A stretch of DNA of 61,706 nt from Candidatus Amesbacteria bacterium GW2011_GWC2_45_19 (GCA_001001555.1 LCKS01000001.1:18360-80065); one strand, 5' to 3'. Positions 7,371 to 61,495 are shown, numbered from the stretch's first letter. A program made the numbers and translations. Notes: generated from the sequence alone by a model not told the origin.

Positions 7371-7373
7371 GTA

Positions 7374-7614
7374 ATGAAAGGTATGAAAAAGAATTTGAAA
7401 AAAAGAGCAATTCACCGTCTAAAAATATTGGGAGGGCAAATCAGGGGCCTCCAGAAGATGATCGAGGAGGAAGAATATTGCGTTGCTATCCTGCAGGGAT
7501 TTAGTTTTGGAGAATCATCTGTCGACGCACGTTATTGAACAGATAAAAGCCGGTAAAGAATCAAAACCGATTGAAGAAATTTTGGCAATTTATAAGTTAG
7601 CCAAGAAGAAATAA
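7374..7614 (+). pseudogene. second CsoR/RcnR-family gene, disrupted by a short internal deletion plus frameshift
   Basis: Frame 0 reads MKGMKKNLKKRAIHRLKILGGQIRGLQKMIEEEEYCVAILQ and then runs into a stop at 7536. A different frame from about 7495 reads [39 protein letters not shown], stop 7612-7614. About 11-12 residues of helix 2 are missing relative to the csoR at 4882. Confidence 0.6.
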
Positions 7615-47617: not shown

Positions 47618-48865
47618 ATGATAAAGTTTTACCAAATGAAGTGGTGGGGAATTGCATTACTGCCTTTCTTTTTTTGTCCACTTAAAATTTATGCCTCGAT
47701 TGGAATAAATGAGTTTCAGGTCGAACCCTCGGGATCAAGTCAATGGATTGAACTTTATAACTCTGGACCTGATTCACAAGATATATCAGGTTGGTTTATT
47801 GACGATGATGGAGGTACAACAAAGTTCACAATTCCCACAAATACAGTATTAACCCCCAATGCTTGTATGTCGTTTCAAAGTGGCAGCTTTTTTTGGAATA
47901 CTGCTTCGGGCGACAAAGCTAGGTTGTTGTCTGGTGACACTATAATTGATGAATACCAATATTCTAGTAGTCCTGGAAATAATGTATCGTTTGGTAGATT
48001 ACCTGACGGAACTGGTGGCTGGACCACTTTCAGTAATCCAAGTAGAGACAAATTAAATAATACTAACACCTCTTGTTTATCTTTACCTACACCCTCACCA
48101 TCTTCAACTCCATTATCAACTCCCTTGCAAACACCAGCTGTTTCCCCGACTCCAACACCCAATGATTACTCAAATTTATCCATTTCAGAATATCTGCCAT
48201 ATCCAGATAGTGGAAATGAATGGGTAGAAATCTATAATGGGAATGATTCTGAAGTGAATTTGTATGGTTGGTTTGTCGATGATGTTGCTGATGGTGGTAG
48301 TGCACCGATAGGCATTTCTGGAACAATCAGCGCCAAAACTTATAAGCAATTTTATTTGTCCGACTCATTTCTTAATAATAGTGGAGACGATGTTCGATTG
48401 TTGAATGGTAGTAAAATTGAAAAAAACAAAACATCATTTTCTGCATCAACTAAAGCGAAATCCTGGTCAAAAGATAGTTCAGGCAACTGGTGTCAAATTG
48501 ATCCAACACCCAATTCCTCCAATCCTAGTTGCCCAACACTCACATCTGCCCCTTCGCCTTCGGCTTCGACAGGCACAAACACCCCCAAACCCAGCCCTAC
48601 TCCAAAATCTAGCTCGACCCCCACCTCTACTCCAACAGCCAAACCCTCTCCCACGCCAAGCATATCACCCCCTACCCTCCCCCCTCTTACTTTAAGAGGG
48701 GGGACCGAGGAGAGTGATATTAAGGAGACTCCGACCGTTCTCTCTTCTTCCACCCAACGCAACATCAATTTCCCAGCCATCGCCCTGATCGCCGTCGGCG
48801 GGATTGTCTTTATCGCCTCCGTAGGCCTTATAATCAGAGGGTATGTCCATCCGCCGCCGGATTAA
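47618..48865 (+). CDS. surface protein with two lamin-tail domains, Pro/Ser/Thr linkers and a C-terminal TM anchor
   Basis: 415 aa. INEFQVEPSGSSQWIELYNSG..ISGWFIDDDGG and ISEYLPYPDSGNEWVEIYNGN..LYGWFVDDVADGG (LTD signature). PTPSPSSTP-type linkers. C-terminal hydrophobic helix. Confidence 0.7.
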   Translation: MIKFYQMKWWGIALLPFFFCPLKIYASIGINEFQVEPSGSSQWIELYNSGPDSQDISGWFIDDDGGTTKFTIPTNTVLTPNACMSFQSGSFFWNTASGDKARLLSGDTIIDEYQYSSSPGNNVSFGRLPDGTGGWTTFSNPSRDKLNNTNTSCLSLPTPSPSSTPLSTPLQTPAVSPTPTPNDYSNLSISEYLPYPDSGNEWVEIYNGNDSEVNLYGWFVDDVADGGSAPIGISGTISAKTYKQFYLSDSFLNNSGDDVRLLNGSKIEKNKTSFSASTKAKSWSKDSSGNWCQIDPTPNSSNPSCPTLTSAPSPSASTGTNTPKPSPTPKSSSTPTSTPTAKPSPTPSISPPTLPPLTLRGGTEESDIKETPTVLSSSTQRNINFPAIALIAVGGIVFIASVGLIIRGYVHPPPD

Positions 48866-49223
48866 ACATTGGCTACCCACTCTGGCCTGGGCAATTCTCA
48901 TTTTCTCCTTTTCCTCTCAACCCACGCTCACCGCCAACCAAGTTTACTGGCAGGACTTCGTTATCAAAAAATCTGCCCACCTCTTCGTTTACGCTGTCCT
49001 GGCGATACTAATTTACCGCTCGCTCAAACTTACCTCCCGCTTTTCCAAATTATACTTATTCCTTTTCACTTTAATTCTAGTAGTCTTATACGCCGTTTCT
49101 GATGAATTCCATCAAACTTTCAGTCTCGGTCGCACTCCCACCCTGCGCGATGTCTTCATTGACATCGCCGGGGGTTTGACAGGACTTATAGTAAAGACTA
49201 AAATCGGCTCCAGTGCCCCTTAA
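48843..49223 (+). CDS. VanZ-family membrane protein
   Basis: 126 aa. Four TM helices and an SDEFHQ motif. Confidence 0.7.
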   Translation: MSIRRRIKHWLPTLAWAILIFSFSSQPTLTANQVYWQDFVIKKSAHLFVYAVLAILIYRSLKLTSRFSKLYLFLFTLILVVLYAVSDEFHQTFSLGRTPTLRDVFIDIAGGLTGLIVKTKIGSSAP

Positions 49224-52200
49224 GAAGCTTTTCAGCTTCCTGCTCTCCTTCCTCCTTCTTTTCCAAGGCAATGCTTCCTATCTGGTAGCTTTTGCCCAAG
49301 AAGCCACCGAATCTGCTACCCAAACCGTTGTTGAACCAACTCCAACCCCCACCCCTTCGTCCACCCCTGCCCCCGAGCCGACTTTGGACCCCAATCTTAT
49401 TCCGATTCCTGTCCCCACCCCTATCCCTGAATGGCAGACAATTGATGGCGTGGACATCACTACTAGCCCGATCACTGAAGGTCACGCATATCGATTCCGG
49501 GACACAGCAGTCACGGTGACTTTTACCAAAGTCACTCAGTCCGCCCCTCTCAGAATAAAAGAAGTCCAAGTTGGTGACGCCACGGGCTACGACATTACTT
49601 CAGACATGCCCGACGGGAGTTTTATATACGACTTGACACTTCCTAACCCTAATCCAAACCAAGAAGCCAAGGTCCAGTATTCTGAAGACGGCCAAACTTA
49701 TCAAGAATTGCCAGCGGAAGAACAAAACAACATTTTTGTTATCAAGAATCTGGACCATTTCACTATTTTTATAGTCCGCCCAGATACTCCAACAGATGAT
49801 GGTTCGTCTACTACTAATGATTCTTCCGGAGGAACGGTCTGTGTGGTAGGTTCCGGCTCAAACAATTGTTACCAAACTATCCAAGCTGCTGTAGACGCTG
49901 CGTCCGCTGGTGACCAGATTAAAGTAGCGGATGGAACATATTCGGATCCAGTCTCCATCGATAAACCTGGACTGACCATTTCTTGTTCCGGTACCGGCGC
50001 GGAAATCAATACTAATGGAGACATAGGCCTTTCTCTTCTGCCTGGCGCGGACAACACTACCATTGAAAACTGTTTAATTACCGGAAATGGTGACGGCATC
50101 AATTTAAACGGCGTGACCGGAACCACTATCCGCAATAATTCCATTACCGACAATTCCTACGTTACTAGTGGCATTTACATCATCGACTCTTCAAGTGTCA
50201 CCATTTCCAACAACACCATTTCCAACAACCAGATGGGGATAGACATTACTGAAACAGAAGAGGGAAATTCGTCAGATATTGTCATCAGCGGCAATATTTT
50301 TGATTCCAACAGTGATTACAATATTTTTAACAACTCTGTCAGTGAGGTAACAGCTACCGGCAATGACTGGATGACTACTGACGGCTCAATTGTCAAAGAA
50401 TATATTTACGATTACCTAGACGACGAATTTCTGGGCTTAGTTTCCTACGACACTACCGACCCAGTTGCCAACGCGGGACCTGACGTAGTAACTGGTTTGG
50501 AATTTGTCCAAGACGGATCGGGAAGCAGTGACGAGTACAAAATCGACACTTACTCCTGGTCCCAAACCTCCGGTCCCGGGACTGTCATTTTCGGATCGCC
50601 CGACTCCGATTCCACAACAATCTCAGCGGATATTGACGGTGATTACACCATTGAGTTAATAGTCACCGATTATCAGGGTAATTCCAACACTGATGAGTTT
50701 TTGCTAACATGGGACACAACCGCTCCGGTTTTAGCTGAAGTAACCCCTGTTTCTACGCCTACTAATAACCCCACCCCCGGCTATACGTTCAATTCCGATG
50801 AAAGCGGAAGTATTTCATATGGGGGATCCTGTTCCAGCGTTACAAGCTCTGCGGCCGCGGTAGATAATACGATAACATTCAACTTCCTGCCAGACGGGAC
50901 ATATTCAGACTGTACGATAACAGTTACTGATTCGGCTGGAAATCCAAGTGATCCTTTAAGCGTGAGTACTTTCACTGTTGATACTCAAGATCCTGTTTCT
51001 TCATTTAGTTCTCCTGCCGATGGCAGTTTTTGGAACGAGCCAATTGAAATTTCCGGAAGTTCGACTGATGTCCCAGATACAACTGTTGATTACGTTACTT
51101 TATCTTATTCCATCTCAGGAGAAGATGATTGGTATGAGATAACTGAAATCACAAACGACTCTTTAGACGAGCCTTTTAACTGGAATTATAATTGGGAGCC
51201 GGAAGATGGTGAGGACATCTACGATATCATGGCTGAGGCTACCGATACGGCGGGAAATACTGAATCAAGTCCAGTTGTGGAGGAAGTGACCTATGACGTT
51301 ACGGGGCCTTCCGTAACCGATATATCAATTTCTCCTGATCCTACCAATCATGCTCCATCAATCCTGGCATTGGCAGAAGATTTTTTGAGTATAATCGCTT
51401 CGGCGATTTTCCAAGTCGACGATTCGGACTTTAGCGATCCGTTGCCGCTCTCTGCCTTCGACGGTGACTTTGATTCTCTCTCTGAATATTTTTTTGCCGA
51501 CGAATATAACGGCATGCCTTATCCTGGTGAAGGACTTCATACCTTATATGTTGGAGCATATGATTTTGCGGGAAATTTCGGTTTTAACTTTGCCTCTTTT
51601 ACAGTAGACACATTCTCTCCGGAATCTTCTTTTAGTTCACCTGCAGAAGGAAGTATTTGGAGCTCATCAATCGATATATCAGGCTCATCCAACGATGAGA
51701 CAGAGGATACTGTTGATTATGTTCAACTTTTCTATAGAGAATCAGTAGGAGAGGATGAAGAAGAAAATGAATGGACAGAAATTGATACCGATTTCGAGAA
51801 TGGAGGTACGCAGCCCTTACAAAATACAGGAGGCGGCAATCCTTTTGAATGGAACTTTGATTGGACTCCTTCAAGCGATGGAACTTTTGACATAAAAGCT
51901 GAAGCGACTGATACGGCAGGCAACACCGAAACGAGTCCGGTGGTAGAAAACATAACGTATGATACTACCGCACCTACAACGCCAGTCGCCGACCCAGCGG
52001 CAGGTGATTATATGAGTGACCAATCGGTGACTTTGGCTAGTTCCGACAGCTTGAGCGGTGTGGATAAGATTTACTACACGACGGACGGCTCCACGCCGGA
52101 CAAGACTAAAACGGAATACACCGGTACCCCAATCACGGTAGACAAAGACATGACAATTAAAGCCATTGCCTACGACAAGGCCGGTAACGCTAGCGATGTT

Positions 52201-53082
52201 TTGGAAGCAGTTTATGGAATTGCGCCAAAAATATCAGCAGAAGCTTCCTCAGAGGTAACGTCAACATCTACAACCATCACTTGGACCACAGATGATCCTT
52301 CGACGTCTCGCGTGATTTATGATATGGTATCACACGGAGAACTTGGAGCCGCACCAAATTATGGTTACGCAAATTCGACAGTAGAGGATTCAACGAAAGT
52401 TACGGCCCACAGCGTAGATATAACCGGGCTGACAGCGGGGACCACTTATTATTACAGAACCATTTCCCACGGATCGCCGGAAGCGGTTAGTGAAGAAAAG
52501 AGCGTTACAACTACCTCCTCTTCCTCTTCTTCCAGTTCCAGCAGTAGTGGAGGAAGCGGAACGTCAGCAGCCAGCGCTCCTTCCTGCAACGATACCAAGC
52601 CTGGTAGCGCTCCGGTTCTTCTGTCTGCTGTCTCTGCAGGAGCCAATAGCGTCACCTTAACTTGGTCCAAGGCAACCAGCCCGGTGACCTATTATTTAAT
52701 AGCTTACGGCTTGGGAACGGGTCAGCAACAGTACGGAAATCCGAATGCGGGTGATTCTAATACCACGTCTTATACAGTTTCCGGCTTATCCGGAGGAACA
52801 ACGTATTACTTTAAAGTCAGGGCCGGTAATGGTTGCGCTCCTGGAGAATTCTCAAATGAGCTGTCGGTCAGACCTACCGGCGGTGTAGTTACCGCCGTTC
52901 CAGAGGGCTTTGCGGTAGGGGTTTTGGGAGAAAGTATTGAAGAAGTAAAAACCGTTGAACCTACCCCCTCTCCGGGAATCAAAGGGATTAGCACCCCCAA
53001 CTTCAATTGGTGGCTGATCATCATCCCCACCGCACTTTTGGGTCTCCTTATCTCTGGACTTCTGCTCCGACGTCGCACATAA
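49213..53082 (+). CDS. giant (1289 aa) surface protein: signal peptide, right-handed beta-helix, PKD/Ig-like modules, FN3 modules, poly-Ser linker, C-terminal TM plus RRRT tail
   Basis: Parallel beta-helix repeats (NTTIENCLITGNGDGINLNG..IRNNSITDN..ISNNTISNNQMGIDI). Two tandem Ig-like modules ending ..EATDTAGNTE(S/T)SPVVE. FN3 modules (TTYYYRT.., TTYYFKVRAGNGCAPGEFSNE). Tail WWLIIIPTALLGLLISGLLLRRRT. Confidence 0.75.
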   Translation: MPLKKLFSFLLSFLLLFQGNASYLVAFAQEATESATQTVVEPTPTPTPSSTPAPEPTLDPNLIPIPVPTPIPEWQTIDGVDITTSPITEGHAYRFRDTAVTVTFTKVTQSAPLRIKEVQVGDATGYDITSDMPDGSFIYDLTLPNPNPNQEAKVQYSEDGQTYQELPAEEQNNIFVIKNLDHFTIFIVRPDTPTDDGSSTTNDSSGGTVCVVGSGSNNCYQTIQAAVDAASAGDQIKVADGTYSDPVSIDKPGLTISCSGTGAEINTNGDIGLSLLPGADNTTIENCLITGNGDGINLNGVTGTTIRNNSITDNSYVTSGIYIIDSSSVTISNNTISNNQMGIDITETEEGNSSDIVISGNIFDSNSDYNIFNNSVSEVTATGNDWMTTDGSIVKEYIYDYLDDEFLGLVSYDTTDPVANAGPDVVTGLEFVQDGSGSSDEYKIDTYSWSQTSGPGTVIFGSPDSDSTTISADIDGDYTIELIVTDYQGNSNTDEFLLTWDTTAPVLAEVTPVSTPTNNPTPGYTFNSDESGSISYGGSCSSVTSSAAAVDNTITFNFLPDGTYSDCTITVTDSAGNPSDPLSVSTFTVDTQDPVSSFSSPADGSFWNEPIEISGSSTDVPDTTVDYVTLSYSISGEDDWYEITEITNDSLDEPFNWNYNWEPEDGEDIYDIMAEATDTAGNTESSPVVEEVTYDVTGPSVTDISISPDPTNHAPSILALAEDFLSIIASAIFQVDDSDFSDPLPLSAFDGDFDSLSEYFFADEYNGMPYPGEGLHTLYVGAYDFAGNFGFNFASFTVDTFSPESSFSSPAEGSIWSSSIDISGSSNDETEDTVDYVQLFYRESVGEDEEENEWTEIDTDFENGGTQPLQNTGGGNPFEWNFDWTPSSDGTFDIKAEATDTAGNTETSPVVENITYDTTAPTTPVADPAAGDYMSDQSVTLASSDSLSGVDKIYYTTDGSTPDKTKTEYTGTPITVDKDMTIKAIAYDKAGNASDVLEAVYGIAPKISAEASSEVTSTSTTITWTTDDPSTSRVIYDMVSHGELGAAPNYGYANSTVEDSTKVTAHSVDITGLTAGTTYYYRTISHGSPEAVSEEKSVTTTSSSSSSSSSSSGGSGTSAASAPSCNDTKPGSAPVLLSAVSAGANSVTLTWSKATSPVTYYLIAYGLGTGQQQYGNPNAGDSNTTSYTVSGLSGGTTYYFKVRAGNGCAPGEFSNELSVRPTGGVVTAVPEGFAVGVLGESIEEVKTVEPTPSPGIKGISTPNFNWWLIIIPTALLGLLISGLLLRRRT

Positions 53083-53091
53083 TAATCCTTG

Positions 53092-53271
53092 ATGTGGAAA
53101 TTCCTGCGCCATCTGTTTTTTCCTCACGAATCCAATAATCAGCGGGCCAAAATCTTGCATCCCTCCGGCCTGGCTTTAATAATCGGTATCTTCGTCGTCT
53201 TCCAACTAACCATTTTCTGTCCGGGTTCAGGGCAGATAAGGGGCAGCTTCACTTTTGGTAGGGTAATGTAG
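53092..53271 (+). pseudogene. displaced 5' fragment of a CAP-domain gene (paralogous to the start of 60644-61495)
   Basis: MWKFLRHLFFPHESNNQRAKILHPSGLALIIGIFVVFQLTI compares with MLKFLRHLFFPHDSNNQRAKFLHPSSLVVTIGLFIVFQVTINQLTI. It then diverges and stops. Confidence 0.7.
53098..53213 (+). repeat. left copy of a diverged direct repeat bracketing the island
   Basis: aaattcctgcgccatctgttttttcctcacgaatccaataatcagcgggccaa...tcttccaactaaccat aligns with 60650-60780. I count roughly four-fifths identity by eye. The right copy carries a 12-nt internal duplication. Confidence 0.75.
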
Positions 53272-53289
53272 TATAATCCCATAGTTAAT

Positions 53290-53313
53290 TAGCCCAAGAT
53301 GGGCTAGTTTTTT
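53290..53313 (+). promoter_or_regulatory. leader hairpin plus U-run directly before the ATG at 53317
   Basis: TATAAT at 53272-53277, then TAGCCCA-aga-TGGGCTA (53290-53306), GTTTTTT, act, ATG. No Shine-Dalgarno. Confidence 0.45.
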
Positions 53314-53316
53314 ACT

Positions 53317-54132
53317 ATGGGCAGAAAATTTTTTATTACATTTGTATTATTGCTTTTATCCTTTTTCCTCGCTCCACGACCGATATATGCTGTTAGCACT
53401 GAAACTTGTGAAGACAACAGTCCCACAGGCAAGCCGGTGCTCACTTCAGCCGTACCAGGAAAAGATAGTGTCACACTAACCTGGACAGAAGCTCAAGATC
53501 CAGTAACCCATTATCTTATTGCTTATGGTAGATCAGAAACAGAAATAGAGTATGGTAATCCGAATGTAGGAGGAAGAAGAACCACTACCTATACAGTTGG
53601 CGAGCTCACAAAAGGAGTGAAATATTATTTTAAGGTACGTCCTATAAACGGTTGTAGACCAGGTGATTTTTCAAATAAACTTCCTGCAACTCCCGGTGTT
53701 ATTGTTAAATCTGGTGTTACTAGGGGAAGAGTTGCAAATATACCCAATTTATCAATTTATAAACCAGTACTTGGAGCAAGTGTATCAGCAACATCTTCAG
53801 CAAAGGTGGAGGTAAAAACACTAGCTCCTTCAGCTATAACCGTCGCCAAATGTACAATGTGTATAAGTTGGCAATTATTAATTACAGAAGCAATACTTTT
53901 GATCTTGTTTTTCTATCTTGCAGAGAAAAATACTTTCTTAAAGCCAATTTTTTCCATAGCGATTCCAACCGTAATATATATTTTGTTTTGGGAGATTAAC
54001 CAAGCATGTCCGCAAAATGGATTTGCCTGTAAATATTTCCTTCCACTTGAAGTAATCATCTTTATAGTTATTGAAATTGCTTACAAAAACATAAGCTATA
54101 AAACAAAGGAAAGAAAGAATAACTTATGTTGA
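53317..54132 (+). CDS. signal-peptide FN3-module protein with a multi-TM C-terminal region
   Basis: 271 aa. The FN3 module CEDNSPTGKPVL..VTLTW..HYLIAYG..YYFKVRPINGCRPGDFSN is paralogous to modules at about 52576-52880 and about 59676-59960. The C-terminal half has 2-3 TM helices. It overlaps the synthase start. Confidence 0.65.
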   Translation: MGRKFFITFVLLLLSFFLAPRPIYAVSTETCEDNSPTGKPVLTSAVPGKDSVTLTWTEAQDPVTHYLIAYGRSETEIEYGNPNVGGRRTTTYTVGELTKGVKYYFKVRPINGCRPGDFSNKLPATPGVIVKSGVTRGRVANIPNLSIYKPVLGASVSATSSAKVEVKTLAPSAITVAKCTMCISWQLLITEAILLILFFYLAEKNTFLKPIFSIAIPTVIYILFWEINQACPQNGFACKYFLPLEVIIFIVIEIAYKNISYKTKERKNNLC

Positions 54133-57038
54133 ATACAATAATCAATAATGTTGGGTTTATCTTTAACAGTGCCGCCTTTTATTCTCAGCAATATTTTGAT
54201 AGATACTCATTTTTAGTTCCTCTTGGAGTAATCGGAATATGGCGATGGTCTGTCTGGATGATAAAAGAGGTTATTGGGCTTCATTACCGTCCTAAAACAA
54301 AGGAATATAATGCAAAAGTCTCCTTGGTGATTCCTGTCTATAATGAGAATCCGCAAGTATTTACACAAGCTCTTAACTCGTGGAAGAAAAATAATCCATC
54401 AGAGATAATTGCGGTAATTGACTATACGGATTTGACGTGCATTGAAATTTTTAAGAAATTTAAAGAGACCTTTTCGGGTGCTAAACTTATTATTACTAAA
54501 ACTCCCGGGAAACGGCCGGCTTTAGCAGATGGGATTAAAGTTGCAAAAAGTGAAATTGTAGCCTTGGTTGACAGTGATACAATTTGGGATGATAATGTTT
54601 CAAGAAATGGTCTTCCCCCTTTTGTTGATCCTAAAGTGGCAGGGGTTGCTACATACCAAAGCGTTTTGCAGCCTAAAACTTTTGCACAAAAAGTTTTTGA
54701 TATACAGCTTGATTTGAGATATAGACATGAGTATCCATTCTTAGCCGCTTCGGGAGATGCTCTTGTTTGCCTCTCTGGGAGAACGGCATTTTACAGGCGT
54801 GAAGTTATTACTCCCATGCTTTCTGATTTAGTAAATGAGAAGTTCATGGGAGTACCGGTTATTAGCGGTGATGATAAAAGATTGACATACCTTGTGCTCG
54901 CAGCAGGATGGAAGGTTGCTTATCAAAGTACATCTCACGTTTATACGCCTGGGATGGCAGAACTGGGTGCATACCTTAAACAAAGACTGCGTTGGACAAG
55001 AAACAGTCTTCGTGCTGATTTGTCAGCAATCTTTAACGGATGGCCTATTCGGCATCCCGCTCTTCTCTTTTTTCAAATTGATAAGTTCCTTCAGGGCTTT
55101 GTGGTAATTTTAAGCCCCATTTATTTCTTTGTATCGATCTATCTTCATCTATGGATAGCTGCGTTCGCAATTTTTTGTTGGTGGTTTATCAGTAGAACTA
55201 TAAAGTTGTATTATCCCCACCTTTCTTATAAGCCCAAAAATATTGTTATTTTACCCGGATATGTGCTCTATACATTTCTTGCCGGGATACTTAAAATTTA
55301 TGCACTTTTTACACTCAATACTCAAGGCTGGATAACACGCTGGGATAAATCAAGGTTACCTCAGTTTAGATTACTTCTAGCGGCCCCTTCCTATCTTGCT
55401 ACTTTATCAGTTGTCTTGTTTCTTACATATGGAGTTTATATTTATAAAGAACACACATATTTAATTCCAAAATCACAAAGAGAACAATTGCTGGCAAGTG
55501 CTTTGCCCAGTATTCAAGCAGATGTTATTGCAAGTAGCGCAGTTTTAGGAGAATCAACATTAGCCCAAAAGGAGTTGTTTACTAATCGCTATGAAGCAAA
55601 AGGAAACGAAAATTTTATCGAGATATCCAATAAATTCGGAGTTGATGTAAACCAATTATATTATGCAAATATGGCCAAAGCACCAAATAGAAATATTACA
55701 CCAGGGACAATTTTATCAATCCCAGGAAAAGATATTCAACTACAACCAAATACTTCTCTTACCAAACTAACATATTCGACTAACCCTATAACCGTCCAAC
55801 ATGATAAAAAAACAAATACTCTTCTGGTTACAGGAAGGGGTAGGCAGATAACTCTAAAAGATATTGTGAGCAATGGAGGGAAGAGTTATTTAGAAGAAAT
55901 TTCATCAAAAATCTGGCTTGCAAAAGCTACAATTTTTCTTTCGGACGGTATTACTTTGAGGCTTGACAAAAACGAAGTAGAATGGCTTAAACTCGAGAGT
56001 AATAAAAAAGGATTTGTAATGCTTCGTTCTCTAAATAGCGACATTATTATTAACGGAGTAAAAATAACTTCTTGGGATACCGAAAACAATGATTACGATA
56101 AAGAACTCAAGGATGGAAGAAGTTTTATTATGGTAAAGGATAATTCAAGAATGGATATTTATTCATCCGAGCTTTCTTATTTAGGTTATCCAACTTCGTC
56201 AGATATTGCCGCATCTCCTTACGGTGTTTCTTGGAAGCTAAGTAACCTCAAGTTAAAAAAAGAACTTCTTACTGGAGAAGTTATCAACAGTAAATTCCAC
56301 CATAATTATTTTGGTGCTTACACTTATGGGGCAACTGGTATGCTGTGGAAGGGAAATGAATTTTATGAAAATGTAAGGTATGGGCTTGACCCCCATGATG
56401 ATTCCAATGGTTTTTTGGTGGAAGATAACATTGCCAGAGATAATGGTTCGCATGGTATTATTTTTTCGAAACGCAGCATGTACAATACGGTTCGTAATAA
56501 TATCTCCTACAATAATAAATTGCACGGGATAATGCTTCATGAAAAATCTGACTTTAATATAATTGAAAATAACACCGTAACCGGCAATACAAGCGGAATT
56601 GCCCTCTATCGTTCAAGTAACAACATTGTTCGCAACAACACCATAGCAAACAATAGACATGGAGTAAGGGCAAATGCAGGTTCAGAGGGTAACATTGTGC
56701 AGAATAACAGCATAACGGGAAGTGGATTATATGGAATTTATTTCTATGATAAGGCGAATAACAATTCTGTTTCAAATAATACATTTGAATATAACGACGT
56801 AGGAATTTATATTAAATCAGACTCAAATAATATTAGTAAGAATTCTTTAATAAATAATGCTGTTGGAGTTTACTTCCAAGATCAAGCTTCGAACAATGTC
56901 TTAGCTGACAATCAAATTAAGCAAAGCGGTATTTATGGAATTTATACAAAAGTTGCCAACGAAGTGAGCAATATTCTTGGGGTCAACGATTTATATAGAA
57001 ATCGTAAAGATGTGGCAGGGATGAACGAAGCAGATTAA
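54126..57038 (+). CDS. processive GT2 polysaccharide synthase (Alg8/HasA/NodC-like) fused to LysM and a right-handed beta-helix, C5-epimerase-like (AlgG-like) domain
   Basis: 970 aa. LVIPVYNE, VDSDT, SGDDKRLT, QRLRW (54981-54995). Several TM helices. LysM module (IEISNKFGVDVNQLYYAN...GTILSIPG). Beta-helix repeats (NNISYNNKLHGIMLH..IENNTVTGNTSGIAL..VRNNTIANNRHGV..) with a DPHD motif (56388-56399). Confidence 0.7.
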   Translation: MLNTIINNVGFIFNSAAFYSQQYFDRYSFLVPLGVIGIWRWSVWMIKEVIGLHYRPKTKEYNAKVSLVIPVYNENPQVFTQALNSWKKNNPSEIIAVIDYTDLTCIEIFKKFKETFSGAKLIITKTPGKRPALADGIKVAKSEIVALVDSDTIWDDNVSRNGLPPFVDPKVAGVATYQSVLQPKTFAQKVFDIQLDLRYRHEYPFLAASGDALVCLSGRTAFYRREVITPMLSDLVNEKFMGVPVISGDDKRLTYLVLAAGWKVAYQSTSHVYTPGMAELGAYLKQRLRWTRNSLRADLSAIFNGWPIRHPALLFFQIDKFLQGFVVILSPIYFFVSIYLHLWIAAFAIFCWWFISRTIKLYYPHLSYKPKNIVILPGYVLYTFLAGILKIYALFTLNTQGWITRWDKSRLPQFRLLLAAPSYLATLSVVLFLTYGVYIYKEHTYLIPKSQREQLLASALPSIQADVIASSAVLGESTLAQKELFTNRYEAKGNENFIEISNKFGVDVNQLYYANMAKAPNRNITPGTILSIPGKDIQLQPNTSLTKLTYSTNPITVQHDKKTNTLLVTGRGRQITLKDIVSNGGKSYLEEISSKIWLAKATIFLSDGITLRLDKNEVEWLKLESNKKGFVMLRSLNSDIIINGVKITSWDTENNDYDKELKDGRSFIMVKDNSRMDIYSSELSYLGYPTSSDIAASPYGVSWKLSNLKLKKELLTGEVINSKFHHNYFGAYTYGATGMLWKGNEFYENVRYGLDPHDDSNGFLVEDNIARDNGSHGIIFSKRSMYNTVRNNISYNNKLHGIMLHEKSDFNIIENNTVTGNTSGIALYRSSNNIVRNNTIANNRHGVRANAGSEGNIVQNNSITGSGLYGIYFYDKANNNSVSNNTFEYNDVGIYIKSDSNNISKNSLINNAVGVYFQDQASNNVLADNQIKQSGIYGIYTKVANEVSNILGVNDLYRNRKDVAGMNEAD

Positions 57039-57130
57039 ATGATACTTGCACCTTTTTTAAAAAAGTGTAACATACCATAACATACATCTTCATCTAGCTG
57101 CCCCAGGGTGAATTTCTAAGAGGAAATAAT

Positions 57131-58042
57131 ATGATAAAACCATCAATTTGTATTGTAGGTCCTGGAATTGTTGGGCAAGCAACGGGGAAAGTTTTGGTAG
57201 AAAAGGGAGTAAGGGTGGGTTTTTTGGGAATTGTAAAAGAACAAATTGAAAAATTAAAAAAAGAGAGTTACAACGCATTTACAAAGGATGAGATTCTTAA
57301 CGGGAGTTATGATTTTGACATAACAATGTTTACTGTCCCGACTTTCACAGTGAATGGAAGAATTGACCTAAGTATCCTTGAACAAGCATCGGTGGATTTG
57401 GGAAAGCGCCTTAAACACTTCAGGAAATATCATTTAGTTGTAGTTAAAAGCACTGTTCTCCCGGGCACAACAGAAGATCTTGTTATTCCTACAATAGAGA
57501 AATACTCAGGTAAAAAGGTCGGAAAAGACTTCGGTGCGTGCATGAACCCCGAATACCTTCGACAAGAAACTTCTTATAACGATACCCTAAATCCCTGGAT
57601 AATTTTAATTGGAGAATACGATAGGAAATCCGGTGACAGGCTTGAATTGATATATAAAAATAAATTCGATTGTCCATTGTTCAGGTGCGAAATTAAAGAG
57701 GCCGAAATGCAAAAATATATCCACAATATTTTTAATGCAACAAAAATTACCTACTTCAACGAAATGCGTCAAATTGCAAATAACCTGTGTATCAATGCCG
57801 ATAAAATCTTCAAATATTCCGCGATAAGTTGTGAAGGAATGTGGAACCCAAACTATGGAATAAAGAACAAGGGACCATTTGACGGGAGCTGTCTTCCGAA
57901 AGACATACAGGCGTTTTGTTTTTGGGCACAAACCAGTGGGTTTAACGCGTCTTTATTAAAAACAGTTATTGATGTAAACAATAAACTTGCTAGCAAGCTA
58001 GGTCTTCACGAATTCAGCTTCAAAAGCAGAGATATCTTATAA
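57131..58042 (+). CDS. UDP-glucose/GDP-mannose 6-dehydrogenase-family enzyme, short form (303 aa)
   Basis: ICIVGPGIVGQATG Rossmann motif, VVKSTVLPGTT, MNPEYLRQE, and catalytic-Cys motif DGSCLPKD. It ends before the usual C-terminal nucleotide-sugar-binding domain. Confidence 0.7.
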   Translation: MIKPSICIVGPGIVGQATGKVLVEKGVRVGFLGIVKEQIEKLKKESYNAFTKDEILNGSYDFDITMFTVPTFTVNGRIDLSILEQASVDLGKRLKHFRKYHLVVVKSTVLPGTTEDLVIPTIEKYSGKKVGKDFGACMNPEYLRQETSYNDTLNPWIILIGEYDRKSGDRLELIYKNKFDCPLFRCEIKEAEMQKYIHNIFNATKITYFNEMRQIANNLCINADKIFKYSAISCEGMWNPNYGIKNKGPFDGSCLPKDIQAFCFWAQTSGFNASLLKTVIDVNNKLASKLGLHEFSFKSRDIL

Positions 58043-58069
58043 AGGTATAATTTGCTTATCTAGCCCGCA

Positions 58070-58963
58070 ATGCGTTATAAAATTAAGGTAATGAATACTG
58101 AGCAACCCCCGGACAATTTATTGAAAGGGCATAAAATTCCTTTGTGGCTCATGGCATCTATTTTGCTGATTTTTATAGCCATAATTATTCGTTTTATTTC
58201 CCCAAAAGTATATTTGGAGACTAATACAAATGTGGTCGATACAAATTCTACCAAGAAACCAGCGCCCTCATTACTACCTACTGAAGTTATCTACCCCTCA
58301 CAAGTACTCAATCTCACTAATTGGAAAATAACAATCCCAACTATTACTTCCGGAGATGCAATAGAAATAAAACAGCCGCGATTGGCAACTTACAACCTTA
58401 ATCCTTGGTTTACAGTTTTGCCAGAAGAAAACGCAGTACGTTTTAGGGCTGCGGTGAATGGTGCAACGACAAGCGGTTCAGGTTATCCCCGCTCAGAGCT
58501 TAGAGAAATGGTCGACAATGGCAAGACAAATGCGAGCTGGCCCTCGAATGAAGGAACACATACTATGTTTTTAGACCAAGCAATCACTGCTGTACCAAAA
58601 ACCAAACAAGATGTAGTAGCGGGGCAAATTCACGATAACAACAAAGACATTATTGTGGTGCGACTTAATTATCCCACTCTTCACGTCAGGATTGATAGAA
58701 CAAACGTCTATACATTAGATTCTAACTATACGCTTGGAAAAAGATTTACTGTTAAGTTTGTAGTTAGCGATGGTTTGACCAAAGTCTATTACAACAACGG
58801 TATTGATCCTGTATATACTCTTAACAAAAGATATTCAGACGCTTATTTCAAAACAGGTGTTTACACTCAGTCAAATTGTAGTAAGGAAGGTTCTCCCTCT
58901 CTCTGTAATGACAACAACTATGGTGAAGTCATTGTTTATCAAGCAGCGGTCACGCATCAGTAA
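58070..58963 (+). CDS. membrane-anchored polysaccharide lyase family 7 (alginate/polyuronate lyase)
   Basis: 297 aa. N-terminal TM helix. The three PL7 signature blocks are present: YPRSELRE, AGQIHD, AYFKTGVYTQS. Confidence 0.75.
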   Translation: MRYKIKVMNTEQPPDNLLKGHKIPLWLMASILLIFIAIIIRFISPKVYLETNTNVVDTNSTKKPAPSLLPTEVIYPSQVLNLTNWKITIPTITSGDAIEIKQPRLATYNLNPWFTVLPEENAVRFRAAVNGATTSGSGYPRSELREMVDNGKTNASWPSNEGTHTMFLDQAITAVPKTKQDVVAGQIHDNNKDIIVVRLNYPTLHVRIDRTNVYTLDSNYTLGKRFTVKFVVSDGLTKVYYNNGIDPVYTLNKRYSDAYFKTGVYTQSNCSKEGSPSLCNDNNYGEVIVYQAAVTHQ

Positions 58964-58984
58964 TTACCAATAACAACGAAACAA

Positions 58985-59013
58985 TTGACAAATTAAAAAC
59001 CGTACAATATAAT
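58985..59013 (+). promoter_or_regulatory. consensus sigma70 promoter
   Basis: TTGACA (58985-58990), exactly 17 nt, TATAAT (59008-59013). Confidence 0.7.
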
Positions 59014-59018
59014 GCCTC

Positions 59019-59052
59019 AATTAACTGCCCTAAGGGCAGTTAATTGTTTTTA
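59019..59052 (+). promoter_or_regulatory. 12-bp perfect leader hairpin plus U-run directly before the ATG at 59056
   Basis: AATTAACTGCCC-taa-GGGCAGTTAATT (59019-59045), then GTTTTTA, tac, ATG. It starts about 6 nt after the -10, so it would be 5'-terminal on the mRNA. No Shine-Dalgarno. Confidence 0.5.
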
Positions 59053-59055
59053 TAC

Positions 59056-60096
59056 ATGAAAAAATTATTGACGGCTTTATTCTTAATAGTTTTTGCGGCA
59101 GGTTTACTCTTTATAAAACTCTCCCCTACTCTTGTAAAAGCAGATACAGGAGCGCCCGTAACAATAACAGCTACATACAATTCAAGTACAGGACAATTAA
59201 ATGCTTCAGGCTCCTATGCTTGGGAGGAATGTGAACCCGGCGAAGAGACAAACATTCTAGGATTTGCCCTTTTTATAAATGGCGGAACTCCTGCCATTAA
59301 TGATAGTAATGCTTTAGATGGATCCTCAATGCACCTTGCAAATAGTGGAAATCCTTGCACAACAACACCCGATAATTGGGTAGACAATAATCATGTTTTA
59401 TCTTCTGCCCCCGCAAATGTTTGTGTTGTTGTTTATGATGTAAGAGTTGACGATTCGGCGGATCCAGGAGGTATTCATTCTTTAATCGGAGCAGGCGGGG
59501 ATTATAATACAGATAATTCTTGGAATTTCAATGGCAGCTCTTATCTGGAAGGGTCTTGTACTGCTCCAGAAGTTATAACACCGACAGAAACACCCACGCC
59601 TGCTCCTACTCCAACACCCACGCCGACACTCTCATTGAGTAATGGTCCAATTGGTGGCTCTAATGGAGGCGGATCAACTCAATGTACCGATGCTAAACCG
59701 GGAATACCGGGATTACTTTCTGTAAACAAGAATAGCTCCTCTACTGCCGTTTTGGCTTGGTCACTAGTTTCGTCTGCCACAGATTACTCTATCCTATATG
59801 GTCTATCTTCTGGAAACTATATCTACGGAGTGCCAAGGACAGGGAATACTGATCACTACACTGTTGGCAGTTTGAATCCTGGTGTCAATTACTACTTTGC
59901 CGTAAAGGCTGTAAATGGGTGCACTCCCGGAGATCCTTCAAATGAGAGATCCACAGGATCAGATAGAGGCCAAGTGTTGGGAGCTTCAACTATGGCTGCC
60001 ACTGGAATTGCAGATCAGCTGGTAATGGTAACGGTGTTAGTAATGGGAGTATTGATAACAGTAAGATCGGGGTATGCGTACGCGAAGGCAAAGTAG
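59056..60096 (+). CDS. secreted protein: unknown Cys-containing N-domain, PT linker, FN3 module, C-terminal TM plus basic tail
   Basis: Start moved to MKKLLTALFLIVF. TPTETPTPAPTPTPTPT linker. FN3 module CTDAKPG..VLAW..YSILYG..YYFAVKAVNGCTPGDPSN. Tail VLGASTMAATGIADQLVMVTVLVMGVLITVRSGYAYAKAK. Confidence 0.65.
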   Translation: MKKLLTALFLIVFAAGLLFIKLSPTLVKADTGAPVTITATYNSSTGQLNASGSYAWEECEPGEETNILGFALFINGGTPAINDSNALDGSSMHLANSGNPCTTTPDNWVDNNHVLSSAPANVCVVVYDVRVDDSADPGGIHSLIGAGGDYNTDNSWNFNGSSYLEGSCTAPEVITPTETPTPAPTPTPTPTLSLSNGPIGGSNGGGSTQCTDAKPGIPGLLSVNKNSSSTAVLAWSLVSSATDYSILYGLSSGNYIYGVPRTGNTDHYTVGSLNPGVNYYFAVKAVNGCTPGDPSNERSTGSDRGQVLGASTMAATGIADQLVMVTVLVMGVLITVRSGYAYAKAK

Positions 60097-60634
60097 GCAC
60101 CTGGTAAGAATGGCAGTGGGGATAGTAATTGTGGTGTTTTCGATTTGGTATCTAGGTTACAGCCAGGGAGTTTTATCATTTAAAACTACACCTCGGGAAA
60201 CTGTAAAAACAGTAAGGTCAAGTCCGCCAGCAGAATTAAAAATACCTAATGCTAAAATAGATTTAAGACTAGACGGAGGTATAATTGAGAACGGAATTTG
60301 GCAAATTTCAGCTAAGGGTGGGTCGTATCTGGTCACAGGGGCTTATCCGGGTGAGGGGGGGAACATAATAATTTATGGACATAACAAATGGAATATTTTG
60401 GGTAGACTAAAGACTGTCACAAAAGGCCAGGCGATAATATTGGTAACTCAGGAGGGAAAAGAGCATAAATATCAAGTAGAAAATGTAATGGTGGTGAGTC
60501 CAAATGAAATAGAAGTAGTTGAACCAAGAAATAATGAGATATTAACAATCTATACGTGTACGGGGTTTTTGGACAGGTTGCGATTTGTGGTAGTAGCCAC
60601 CCCCATTGACTCTGAAATACAAAAGCCGCAATAA
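60074..60634 (+). CDS. sortase-family transpeptidase
   Basis: 186 aa. TM anchor. Catalytic His (NIIIYGHN), Cys (LTIYTCTG) and Arg (RLRFVVVA) in canonical order. Confidence 0.8.
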   Translation: MRTRRQSRHLVRMAVGIVIVVFSIWYLGYSQGVLSFKTTPRETVKTVRSSPPAELKIPNAKIDLRLDGGIIENGIWQISAKGGSYLVTGAYPGEGGNIIIYGHNKWNILGRLKTVTKGQAIILVTQEGKEHKYQVENVMVVSPNEIEVVEPRNNEILTIYTCTGFLDRLRFVVVATPIDSEIQKPQ

Positions 60635-60643
60635 TGGGTAGTA

Positions 60644-61495
60644 ATGCTCAAATTCCTGCGCCACCTGTTTTTTCCTCACGACTCCAATAATCAGCGGGCC
60701 AAGTTTCTTCATCCTTCATCCCTGGTTGTGACCATCGGTCTTTTTATCGTCTTCCAAGTAACCATCAACCAACTAACCATCAACTACCCGCAAATATTAG
60801 GTTACGCTTCCCAGATATCCCCCGAAGAAATAATTCGCTTGACCAATATTCAACGCACATCCTCTGGCCTATCTGAAGTCGAACTGAATTCTCAACTTTC
60901 CGCCGCCGCCGCCCAAAAAGCCGCAGATATGATTGCCCGTGATTATTGGGCTCATGTCTCGCCCGTAGGCACCCAGCCCTGGAACTTTATTACCCAGGCC
61001 GGCTACTCTTACCGCTATGCCGGTGAAAACCTGGCCCGGGATTTTTCCGACGCCAAATCCGTCGTCGACGCTTGGGTAGCTTCTCCTTCGCACCGGGAAA
61101 ATCTGCTCAATTCCCGGTATCAGGACATTGGAATAGCTGTTATCGATGGCCAACTTGAAGGCCGGGAGACCACTCTGGTGGTGCAATTTTTTGGCGCTAA
61201 ATTATCTGCCGCCCCCAGCGTGAGTTCAGTTTCTACTTCCATTGTCAAACCGGTCTCCGCCGCCACCTCTCCGTCTACTATGAACTATGAACCAAGAACT
61301 ATTTCTCCCTTTGATGTGACGAAGGCCGTTTCTCTGACACTGCTCATCATTTTTGTGACCGTTTTAGTTATCGACCTGGTAGCTGTGTATCAAAAGAAGA
61401 TCACCCGCTGGACCAGTAAAAGTTTTGCTCATCTGTTATTTATGTTAGCCTTATTAATAGCCGCCTTTATTATTTCCAAAGGCCAAATACTATGA
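60644..61495 (+). CDS. CAP/SCP/PR-1-like (YkwD-type) domain protein with N- and C-terminal TM helices
   Basis: 283 aa. LSAAAAQKAADMIARDYWAH...YAGENLA...VDAWVASPSHRENLL...IGIAV. Confidence 0.75.
   Translation: MLKFLRHLFFPHDSNNQRAKFLHPSSLVVTIGLFIVFQVTINQLTINYPQILGYASQISPEEIIRLTNIQRTSSGLSEVELNSQLSAAAAQKAADMIARDYWAHVSPVGTQPWNFITQAGYSYRYAGENLARDFSDAKSVVDAWVASPSHRENLLNSRYQDIGIAVIDGQLEGRETTLVVQFFGAKLSAAPSVSSVSTSIVKPVSAATSPSTMNYEPRTISPFDVTKAVSLTLLIIFVTVLVIDLVAVYQKKITRWTSKSFAHLLFMLALLIAAFIISKGQIL
60650..60780 (+). repeat. right copy of the direct repeat bracketing the island
   Basis: See 53098-53213. Confidence 0.75.

Follow-up and report, generated by a model that had tools for sequence, protein, structure and literature searches.

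The window analysed here is a 61,706-nt stretch of Candidatus Amesbacteria bacterium GW2011_GWC2_45_19, and all coordinates are counted within it; labels such as L008 and L101 denote loci used for comparison, with L001 belonging to the same strain as the window. Homologues of its CAP-domain protein place the window in Candidatus Amesbacteria, within the Microgenomates of the Candidate Phyla Radiation (CPR). The start of the CAP gene is found twice: once at the head of the intact gene, and once as an orphaned 5' end that begins 9 nt past the stop codon of the gene for a giant 1289-aa surface protein. Between the two copies lie 7,430 nt (53214-60643), here called the island, with six envelope genes that account for all open reading frames (ORFs) of at least 40 aa in 53-60.7 kb; there are no long ORFs on the minus strand. 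The features are collected in Table 1.

Table 1. Features of the island and of its two borders, in window coordinates (TM, transmembrane segment).
Feature	Position	Strand	Basis and remarks
Giant surface-protein gene, 1289 aa	49213..53082	+	ORF; Pfam beta-helix, PKD/Big, fn3; C-terminal membrane anchor; native left flank
Orphaned CAP 5' end, codons 1-41	53092..53213	+	116-nt repeat; ORF continues into unrelated sequence to 53271
Novel (putatively illegitimate) junction and about 34 nt of filler	53214..53247		No homology to CAP orthologues or to the L101 leader
Operon leader	53248..53316	+	Promoter-like TTCACT-18-TATAAT at 53248-53277; hairpin and U tract at 53287-53309
fn3-domain membrane protein, 271 aa	53317..54132	+	Pfam fn3; first gene of the conserved operon
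GT2 synthase/LysM/C5-epimerase fusion, 970 aa	54126..57038	+	Pfam Glyco_tranf_2_3, LysM, Beta_helix, NosD
AlgD-like nucleotide-sugar 6-dehydrogenase, 303 aa	57131..58042	+	Pfam UDPG_MGDP_dh_N and central domain only
PL7 polyuronate lyase, predicted secreted or anchored	58070..58963	+	Pfam Alginate_lyase2, E 1.7e-38
Second leader	58985..59046	+	Perfect TTGACA-17-TATAAT, 13-bp hairpin, U tract
Surface protein, 350 aa	59044..60096	+	N-domain, Pro/Thr linker, Pfam fn3, C-terminal GQVLGAST...TM...KAK sorting-type tail
Sortase	60074..60634	+	Pfam Sortase; final gene of the insert
Intact CAP-domain gene, 283 aa	60644..61495	+	Pfam CAP, E 3e-17; 5' repeat copy at 60650-60765

A repeat search and pairwise alignment identify 53098-53213 and 60650-60765 as a direct repeat of 116 nt, 82% identical and with a spacing of 7552, which is the longest direct repeat within 47-61.7 kb. 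An earlier note on this DNA had reported that the CAP start recurs at 53092, after the giant gene, in diverged form; this is the case, and the limits given there for the left copy are right, while the right copy, which had been carried on to 60780, ends about 15 nt sooner. The ORF of the left copy (53089/53092-53271) encodes MWKFLRHLFFPHESNNQRAKILHPSGLALIIGIFVVFQLTI and then, as that note had seen, runs into nonsense, in the form of 18 unrelated codons and a stop. It had also seen correctly that the intact gene is headed by a 5' end different from the one left beside the giant gene.

The differences between the two copies, at 21 positions out of 116, are unevenly spread: 3 of 54 nt differ in the codons for the conserved motif FLRHLFFPHxSNNQRAK versus 18 of 62 nt in the variable membrane segment (Fisher p = 0.0013), and codon positions 1, 2 and 3 account for 7, 3 and 11 of them, respectively. 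The longest identical run, of 20 nt, lies in the universally conserved NNQRAK codons. Because the differences follow codon conservation in this way, sparse in the motif and dense in the membrane segment, the two copies are best read as working gene starts that diverged in separate genomes under purifying selection. Both ILHPSGL-type and FLHPSSL-type CAP starts occur in the clade, and the two copies in the window lie inside that allelic range.

Other origins of the repeat were considered and rejected. A dead duplicate decaying in place would have scattered its differences evenly, which is not the distribution seen. An att core of a site-specific element would have been identical in the two copies; there is no such core, and the differences track codon constraint. 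That the FFPHxSNNQRAK start is a common paralogue motif, so that its repetition would be trivial, is contradicted by a six-frame regular-expression search of the window, which gives only two copies. An assembly duplication, the possibility that the earlier note had set against its own reading, is excluded by the number of differences together with the finding that all 24 examined contigs with an identical CAP protein (from JGI, ENA, Logan and NCBI samples) show the same island arrangement; no island-free variants of the strain were found among these 24.

The CAP genes of the clade also hold a tandem 15-nt duplication, CAA(G/C)TAACCATCAAC twice, which encodes Q(V/L)TINQLTIN (at 60755-60784 in the window, and in the orthologues). 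Homology of the left copy stops inside such a 15-nt unit (CCAACTAACCAT), and the break could therefore lie in either unit.

In composition, too, the island stands apart, as had been claimed from its A+T-richness. Its GC content is 37.0% in 53214-59500 and 42.9% in 59501-60643, against 46.1% in the remaining window; the third-codon-position GC of its genes is 0.25-0.36, against 0.40-0.59 for the neighbouring genes; and at 54-58 kb its tetranucleotide profile departs from the window average with z values of up to 4.2-5.8. The compositional break is thus real though uneven along the island, and by third-position GC the island shows no amelioration. The third-position GC of the sortase was rejected as a marker of foreignness, since the sortase of L105 is just as low in high-GC surroundings.

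Evidence on the history of the site comes from at least 10 relatives in which it is empty. In these the CAP proteins are 71-86% identical to that of the window, the range of its Amesbacteria orthologues, and the giant surface-protein gene is followed by a spacer of 9-10 nt and then directly by an intact CAP gene, just as the earlier note had pictured an unoccupied site. The loci concerned (L008, L092, L093/L094, L096, L012, L013, L014, L106 and L107) represent every close relative with readable upstream DNA. Their giant ORFs end in the same membrane anchor, FNWW...ISGLLLRRRP*, before a spacer such as TAATAATCCTT, and the 3' end of the giant gene in the window (FNWW...ISGLLLRRRT*) with its spacer TAATAATCCTT is orthologous to the sequence directly 5' of CAP in the relatives. 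In blastn comparisons, the homology on the left runs through the end of the giant gene and breaks at 53213/53214, and that on the right resumes at 60642-60650; the single CAP 5' end of the relatives (L008 9999-10122) aligns to both copies in the window, and the left and right flanks are each 77.6% identical to L008. From these breakpoints and the single CAP start of the relatives, it can be concluded that the left copy holds the ancestral position and that the window has 7.43 kb more than all of the sampled relatives. The island is very probably a horizontally acquired insertion.

Upstream, L092 and L008 share a backbone of genes for an M23 peptidase, an LTD protein and VanZ, with a PaaX-like gene in L092. 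Between VanZ and CAP lies a slot that is hypervariable among close relatives (window 47618-53082; L008 544-9991; L092 1591-9990). The giant proteins encoded there are of 1289, 1911 and 2331 aa with differing domain sets, and L008 adds an S8 peptidase; only the last 170 or so residues, comprising an fn3 domain and the anchor, are conserved among them (74-75% identical). The contigs of several relatives end within the giant genes of this slot. On the other side, 3' of CAP and between LigT and TrmD, an rmlABCD-like set is found in L008 (11689-15350) and an NTP-transferase in L096 (1669-2400). Because the relatives differ in the sugar-nucleotide genes inserted there, the right flank also appears to be a site of glycan-gene turnover. 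A gene for a Y1 (IS200/IS605-type) transposase was seen at L001 19551-20243, about 9 kb 3' of CAP, among glycosyltransferase and PMT genes; it is outside the island, does not flank it and gives no sign of linkage to it.

The operon carried by the island is present across the Microgenomates. Its synthase/epimerase fusion has hundreds of homologues there, including in Roizman-, Levy- and Daviesbacteria, and a metagenome scan gave 79 further operon loci. The core that is conserved elsewhere consists of the fn3 protein, synthase, dehydrogenase and lyase, with DNA about 76% identical to that of the window in L101, L102 and L097; homologues of the fn3 protein, 57-67% identical, lie directly 5' of the synthase in L097, L101, L102, L108, L110-L112 and L125. 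The operon loci (L097-L104, L108-L125 and others) adjoin PGK/GlmS, gyrA or VanZ. In most of them the GC content of the operon equals that of its flanks (0.33-0.40), and in L097 and L102, where it lies beside PGK, GlmS and MurA, the third-position GC is about 0.28 throughout; in the window, L101, L112 and L132, the GC content of the operon is clearly under that of the host. By this comparison the operon is native to low-GC Microgenomates and an incomer in a few hosts of higher GC.

Some of these loci bear on how the operon may have come to lie 5' of CAP. The low-GC locus L113 (33% GC, synthase 78% identical) reads FtsE-FtsX-M23-LTD-VanZ-GalE-fn3-synthase up to the contig end, so that the operon occupies the same slot as in the window; L143 has the synthase, two further genes and then CAP. 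In L101 the operon is accompanied by a surface-protein N-domain and a sortase, arranged as they are in the window; in L111, L112, L125 and L176 these two lie divergently upstream of it. The N-domain of the surface protein in the window is 64-82% identical to those of the operon-linked proteins at these five loci. The nearest relative of the sortase, 62% identical, is encoded on a 1.1-kb contig (L105) between CAP and the tail of a surface protein, to which the C-terminus of the surface protein in the window is about 80% identical. A sortase gene also lies directly 5' of CAP in more distant genomes, at L023, L026, L033, L035, L037, L042, L050, L059, L062 and L087. Sortase followed by CAP is thus a natural chromosomal adjacency in other Microgenomates, and the junction therefore needed no element, as incoming DNA with that order would bring a CAP start along. 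Because the operon shares the slot elsewhere (L113 and L143) and the sortase-CAP adjacency is natural, a donor with the operon directly 5' of its CAP gene is plausible.

At L101 the six-gene block lies beside gyrA in a higher-GC host and is bracketed by a direct repeat of 225 nt, 78% identical (566-790 and 7373-7597). Both copies are 3' ends of surface-protein genes: one is the sorting tail of the gene upstream, and the other belongs to the surface protein of the operon itself. They may represent another recombination scar like that in the window, or simply paralogous sorting tails. No flanking direct repeats were present at five further operon loci that were searched, and neither recombinases nor flanking repeats were found at other sites of the same operon. 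Tandem paralogous synthase/epimerase fusions, split by a dehydrogenase gene, were observed at L119 1367-8147, L120 8838-15618, L122 10001-17331 and L124 5395-12280, which suggests a diversification of the polymer system in some Microgenomates.

On neither strand of the island was an ORF or remnant of an integrase, excisionase or transposase detected, nor any recombinase-sized ORF. There is no tRNA gene in it or within 33 kb, the one tRNA given by an Rfam scan of the window being far from the island, and its ends have no terminal repeats other than the CAP fragment. Among the viral contigs of IMG/VR the operon has no close relative (generic GT2 matches of 29% identity or less only), and it has no match in the plasmid collection. 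The left junction, at 53213/53214, is abrupt, with CCAACTAACCAT followed directly by TTTCTG, and clear homology to L101 begins near 53245-53267; on the right side, the island passes into the conserved CAP gene with no detectable break.

The explanation favoured here, to which a probability of roughly 60% is given, is that the island was produced by one-sided homologous plus illegitimate recombination (homology-facilitated illegitimate recombination, HFIR) with the chromosome of a related donor, the route and the direction of transfer being those that the footprint suggests. Under this explanation, segment 53214-60643 would be foreign DNA in the variable surface-gene slot between VanZ and CAP, and its donor most likely a related Microgenomates chromosome with the operon directly 5' of its own CAP gene. 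After uptake, the incoming linear DNA would have been anchored on the right by homologous pairing with the recipient CAP gene, whose sequence is highly conserved, and the non-homologous left end of this DNA would have been joined illegitimately inside that gene, after codon 41. The recipient's CAP start would not have been replaced, because the left joint lies downstream of where the homology begins; it would have been stranded beside the giant gene as a 41-codon orphan, with the intact gene now preceded by the sortase. Other bacterial loci with orphaned gene parts have been put down to recombination of this one-sided kind: HFIR is known from experiments with transformable bacteria, and it has been invoked for orphan gene parts in type VI secretion system (T6SS) and Rhs loci (PMC5361080; PMC3240628). 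The earlier note had taken the mechanism of mobilisation to be unknown or lost: it was right about the lack of an integrase, a transposase and a tRNA in the island, and the most likely mechanism is ordinary recombination with the chromosome of a related donor.

Several points weigh against this explanation. The supposed donor arrangement, with operon, surface protein, sortase and CAP but without the orphan, was not found on one contig; that of L113 stops inside the operon, and the closest sortase is only 62% identical. The two repeat copies cannot be decisively assigned to recipient and donor: the left copy is nearer to the relatives in nt 1-60 and, in some loci, in nt 61-123, and in a comparison of the halves of each copy with 12 relatives by identity, the segments were too short for an assignment and the alleles of the clade themselves mosaic. 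The last 1.1 kb of the island, with the fn3 domain and the sortase, deviates weakly in composition, and the third-position GC of the L105 sortase is equally low within its high-GC context, so that synteny, and not composition, is what sets the limit of the foreign DNA on the right. Finally, a single crossover with a circularised fragment would yield the same structure.

This last possibility, a Campbell-type integration, is given only an outside chance. In it a circularised donor fragment, carrying leader, operon, sortase and CAP codons 1-41, would have entered by a single homologous crossover in the first, conserved 55 nt or so of CAP, and both copies would be hybrids of donor and recipient. 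The final structure would be identical. Over the first 53 nt of the repeat the copies are 96% identical, and the unbroken matches of 14-20 nt between them could serve for a crossover. In nt 1-60 the left copy comes closest to the CAP gene of L008 (97% identical), and in nt 61-123 to other alleles (L096, L107), which is compatible with a hybrid; this mosaic signal is weak, however, as the alleles of the clade are mosaic too. The homology is also very short and diverged for a RecA-dependent single crossover, and the extra step of circularisation must happen to end at codon 41.

The reverse direction of transfer is rather improbable. Here the operon, surface protein, sortase and CAP would be resident, and the VanZ, giant gene and CAP codons 1-41 of a relative would have come in, with a homologous anchor on the left and the illegitimate joint at 53213/53214. 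The outcome is structurally equivalent, the sortase-CAP adjacency is old in Microgenomates, the operon is in this slot in L113, and the giant genes of the slot differ greatly between relatives. All of the sampled relatives, at least 10 and down to 71% CAP identity, nevertheless have the giant gene next to CAP without a sortase; the compositionally foreign part is the operon and not the giant gene, and both flanks are equally distant from the relatives.

The earlier note had seen in the island the footprint of a discrete element that integrated into the 5' end of the gene while carrying a replacement for it. A site-specific integrative element of this kind (a remnant of a prophage, of an integrative and conjugative element or of an integrative and mobilisable element), with the CAP 5' end as attachment site and its integrase since lost, is now considered unlikely, ranking above only an origin in place. 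Such elements classically leave direct repeats of a gene end on either side of an A+T-rich block, and the gene-end repeat around the same operon at L101 is of that form. The claim is not supported; against it stand the natural adjacency of sortase and CAP, the want of an identical core in a repeat whose differences follow codon constraint, and the want of viral or plasmid relatives. In addition, the island holds no integrase or excisionase, the repeated gene is not the same at the two sites (CAP 5' end in the window, surface-protein 3' end in L101), five other operon loci are without flanking repeats, and nothing but envelope genes is carried, which in low-GC lineages make up a chromosomal operon beside housekeeping genes. 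An ancestral or in-situ origin, in which either the relatives deleted, between the repeats, an old island with a local duplication of the CAP start, or the left copy is a tandem duplicate in decay, is very improbable, for although recombination between direct repeats would restore a clean giant-CAP site, the island shows no amelioration and is lacking in all sampled relatives, and a dead copy would not have kept its differences out of the motif.

It is also conceivable, though doubtful, that the operon is a recombinase-free cassette that spreads among Microgenomates by means of short homology arms, such as the CAP 5' end or surface-protein sorting tails. Insertions of such a cassette into higher-GC hosts would leave a diverged direct repeat of a host gene end, as is seen twice, with the CAP 5' end in the window and the 225-nt repeat in L101. 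It would then constitute a regular homology-guided route for surface-polysaccharide modules in the CPR, by which episymbionts would gain an alginate-like capsule.

The earlier description of the island as a self-contained set of envelope functions can be kept and made more specific: from homology, the genes are predicted to encode a compact alginate-like polyuronate system, with synthesis and lyase functions, together with a sortase and its substrate. In the fusion protein, residues 574-881 match AlgG in a comparison with the PDB (E 7e-36) and form a predicted AlgG-like right-handed beta-helix with YGLDPHDD; its GT2 part, of the membrane processive type, matches hyaluronan synthase structures (E 3e-14), and the GT2 motifs DSD, GDDKRLT and QRLRW are present in the translation. 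The best PDB match of the dehydrogenase is the GDP-mannose 6-dehydrogenase AlgD, 1mfz (E 1.5e-39, versus 5e-29 for the best UDP-glucose dehydrogenase). It keeps the catalytic Cys motif GSCLPKD and is without the C-terminal nucleotide-sugar-binding domain (PF03720); solved members of the family have 390-490 aa. Since the length of 303 aa is conserved across lineages, being found also in L101 (4781-5692) and L102 (3963-4874), this is probably a functional short form. The lyase is closest in the PDB to polyguluronate lyase 1uai (E 6.6e-60) and has the motifs RSELR, QIH and YFKTGVYTQ (YFKxGxYxQ). In the scheme that these similarities suggest, the dehydrogenase would supply an activated nucleotide-uronic acid; polymerisation, export and epimerisation would all fall to the fused synthase/epimerase, and the PL7 lyase would trim the polymer.

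Proteins encoded next to the sortases share the motif (Q/P)VLGA(S/A)(T/V), located tens of residues before a hydrophobic segment that is followed, in the sortase-adjacent surface proteins, by a short basic tail. Sites of this motif are found in the C-terminal parts of the products of 53317-54132, 59044-60096 and 49213-53082, as well as at L101 566-790 and 7373-7597 and L105 3-299; the giant protein has VGVLGES in its place. The motif may be the sorting signal of these CPR sortases, replacing LPXTG.

The two fn3-type genes of the island share a leader layout, in which a sigma-70-like promoter is immediately followed by a strong AATTA..GCCC-loop-GGGC..TAATT hairpin and then a U tract, which stops at the start codon or overlies it. 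The hairpin of the first leader has a predicted energy of -23.2 kcal/mol (z = -5.3), and its outer stem covers the AUG of the fn3 gene; TATAAT and hairpin are kept in L101 (860-935), and the core of the hairpin in L097/L100. The second leader overlaps the TTG start of the next gene at 59044, with an in-frame ATG at 59056. The leader hairpins have no Rfam match; they could be attenuators or elements of translational control.

With its empty sites, plausible source-type lineages and scar, the island offers a clean natural example of the gain of a multi-gene surface trait by an ultra-small CPR genome in which no mobile-element machinery is visible, probably by recombination through conserved flanking genes, and the VanZ-to-CAP slot appears as a hot spot for the exchange of surface genes in Microgenomates. 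The cargo is arguably of more interest than the scar. It represents a minimal alginate-like system, widespread in this group, in which synthase and epimerase are fused and a lyase is included. If the product is truly a polyuronate, it would bear on the attachment of episymbionts to their hosts or on the biofilm matrix in groundwater.

Like the alg cluster of Pseudomonas and Azotobacter, the island has, in one operon, a GT2 polymerase, an AlgG-type beta-helix C5-epimerase with DPHD and an alginate lyase, next to a dehydrogenase that is putatively of the AlgD type. In the island, unlike the alg cluster, a single 970-aa protein with LysM unites synthase and epimerase, the closest solved structures to the GT2 part are those of hyaluronan synthases, the dehydrogenase is without its C-terminal domain, and the lyase belongs to PL7 rather than being a PL5 AlgL. 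No Pfam domains of Alg44, AlgK, AlgE, AlgX, AlgI, AlgJ or AlgF are found among the six genes, and the absence of outer-membrane export components fits a cell without an outer membrane. With co-polymerase, export and acetylation functions missing, a PL7 lyase and a short dehydrogenase, the gene set does not qualify as a canonical alg operon. In the literature library searched, nothing relevant to alginate or C5-epimerase in CPR/Patescibacteria came up, and no account of a module like this one in CPR bacteria.

As a genomic island, the segment is typical in being absent from the orthologous site of the relatives, deviant in composition and made up of a gene block that occurs in other lineages and contexts; mobility genes and a tRNA target are lacking. 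With integrase-mediated islands and prophages at gene ends it shares an A+T-rich accessory block flanked by repeats of the end of a target gene that remains intact. Unlike these, it has no recombinase at one end, no identical att core and no phage or plasmid relatives; its repeats are 82% identical and apparently shaped by selection, the repeated gene is another one at L101, and the junction on the side of the element is a normal chromosomal gene order elsewhere. In structure it fits the products of HFIR, with an abrupt left junction that lacks extended homology. Unlike the orphan immunity arrays of the Vibrio cholerae T6SS and the orphan toxin tips of Rhs/contact-dependent inhibition (CDI) loci, for which an origin by HFIR has been proposed (PMC5361080), the orphan in the window is a 5' end and not a 3' tip or an immunity gene, and the cargo is a 7.4-kb polysaccharide and sortase operon in a CPR host, where the process is reconstructed from a single footprint. 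As in those arrays (PMC5361080), one end would be anchored in a conserved gene and the other joined without homology, cargo is added with no integrase or transposase, and the displaced part of the resident gene is left behind as an adjacent orphan.

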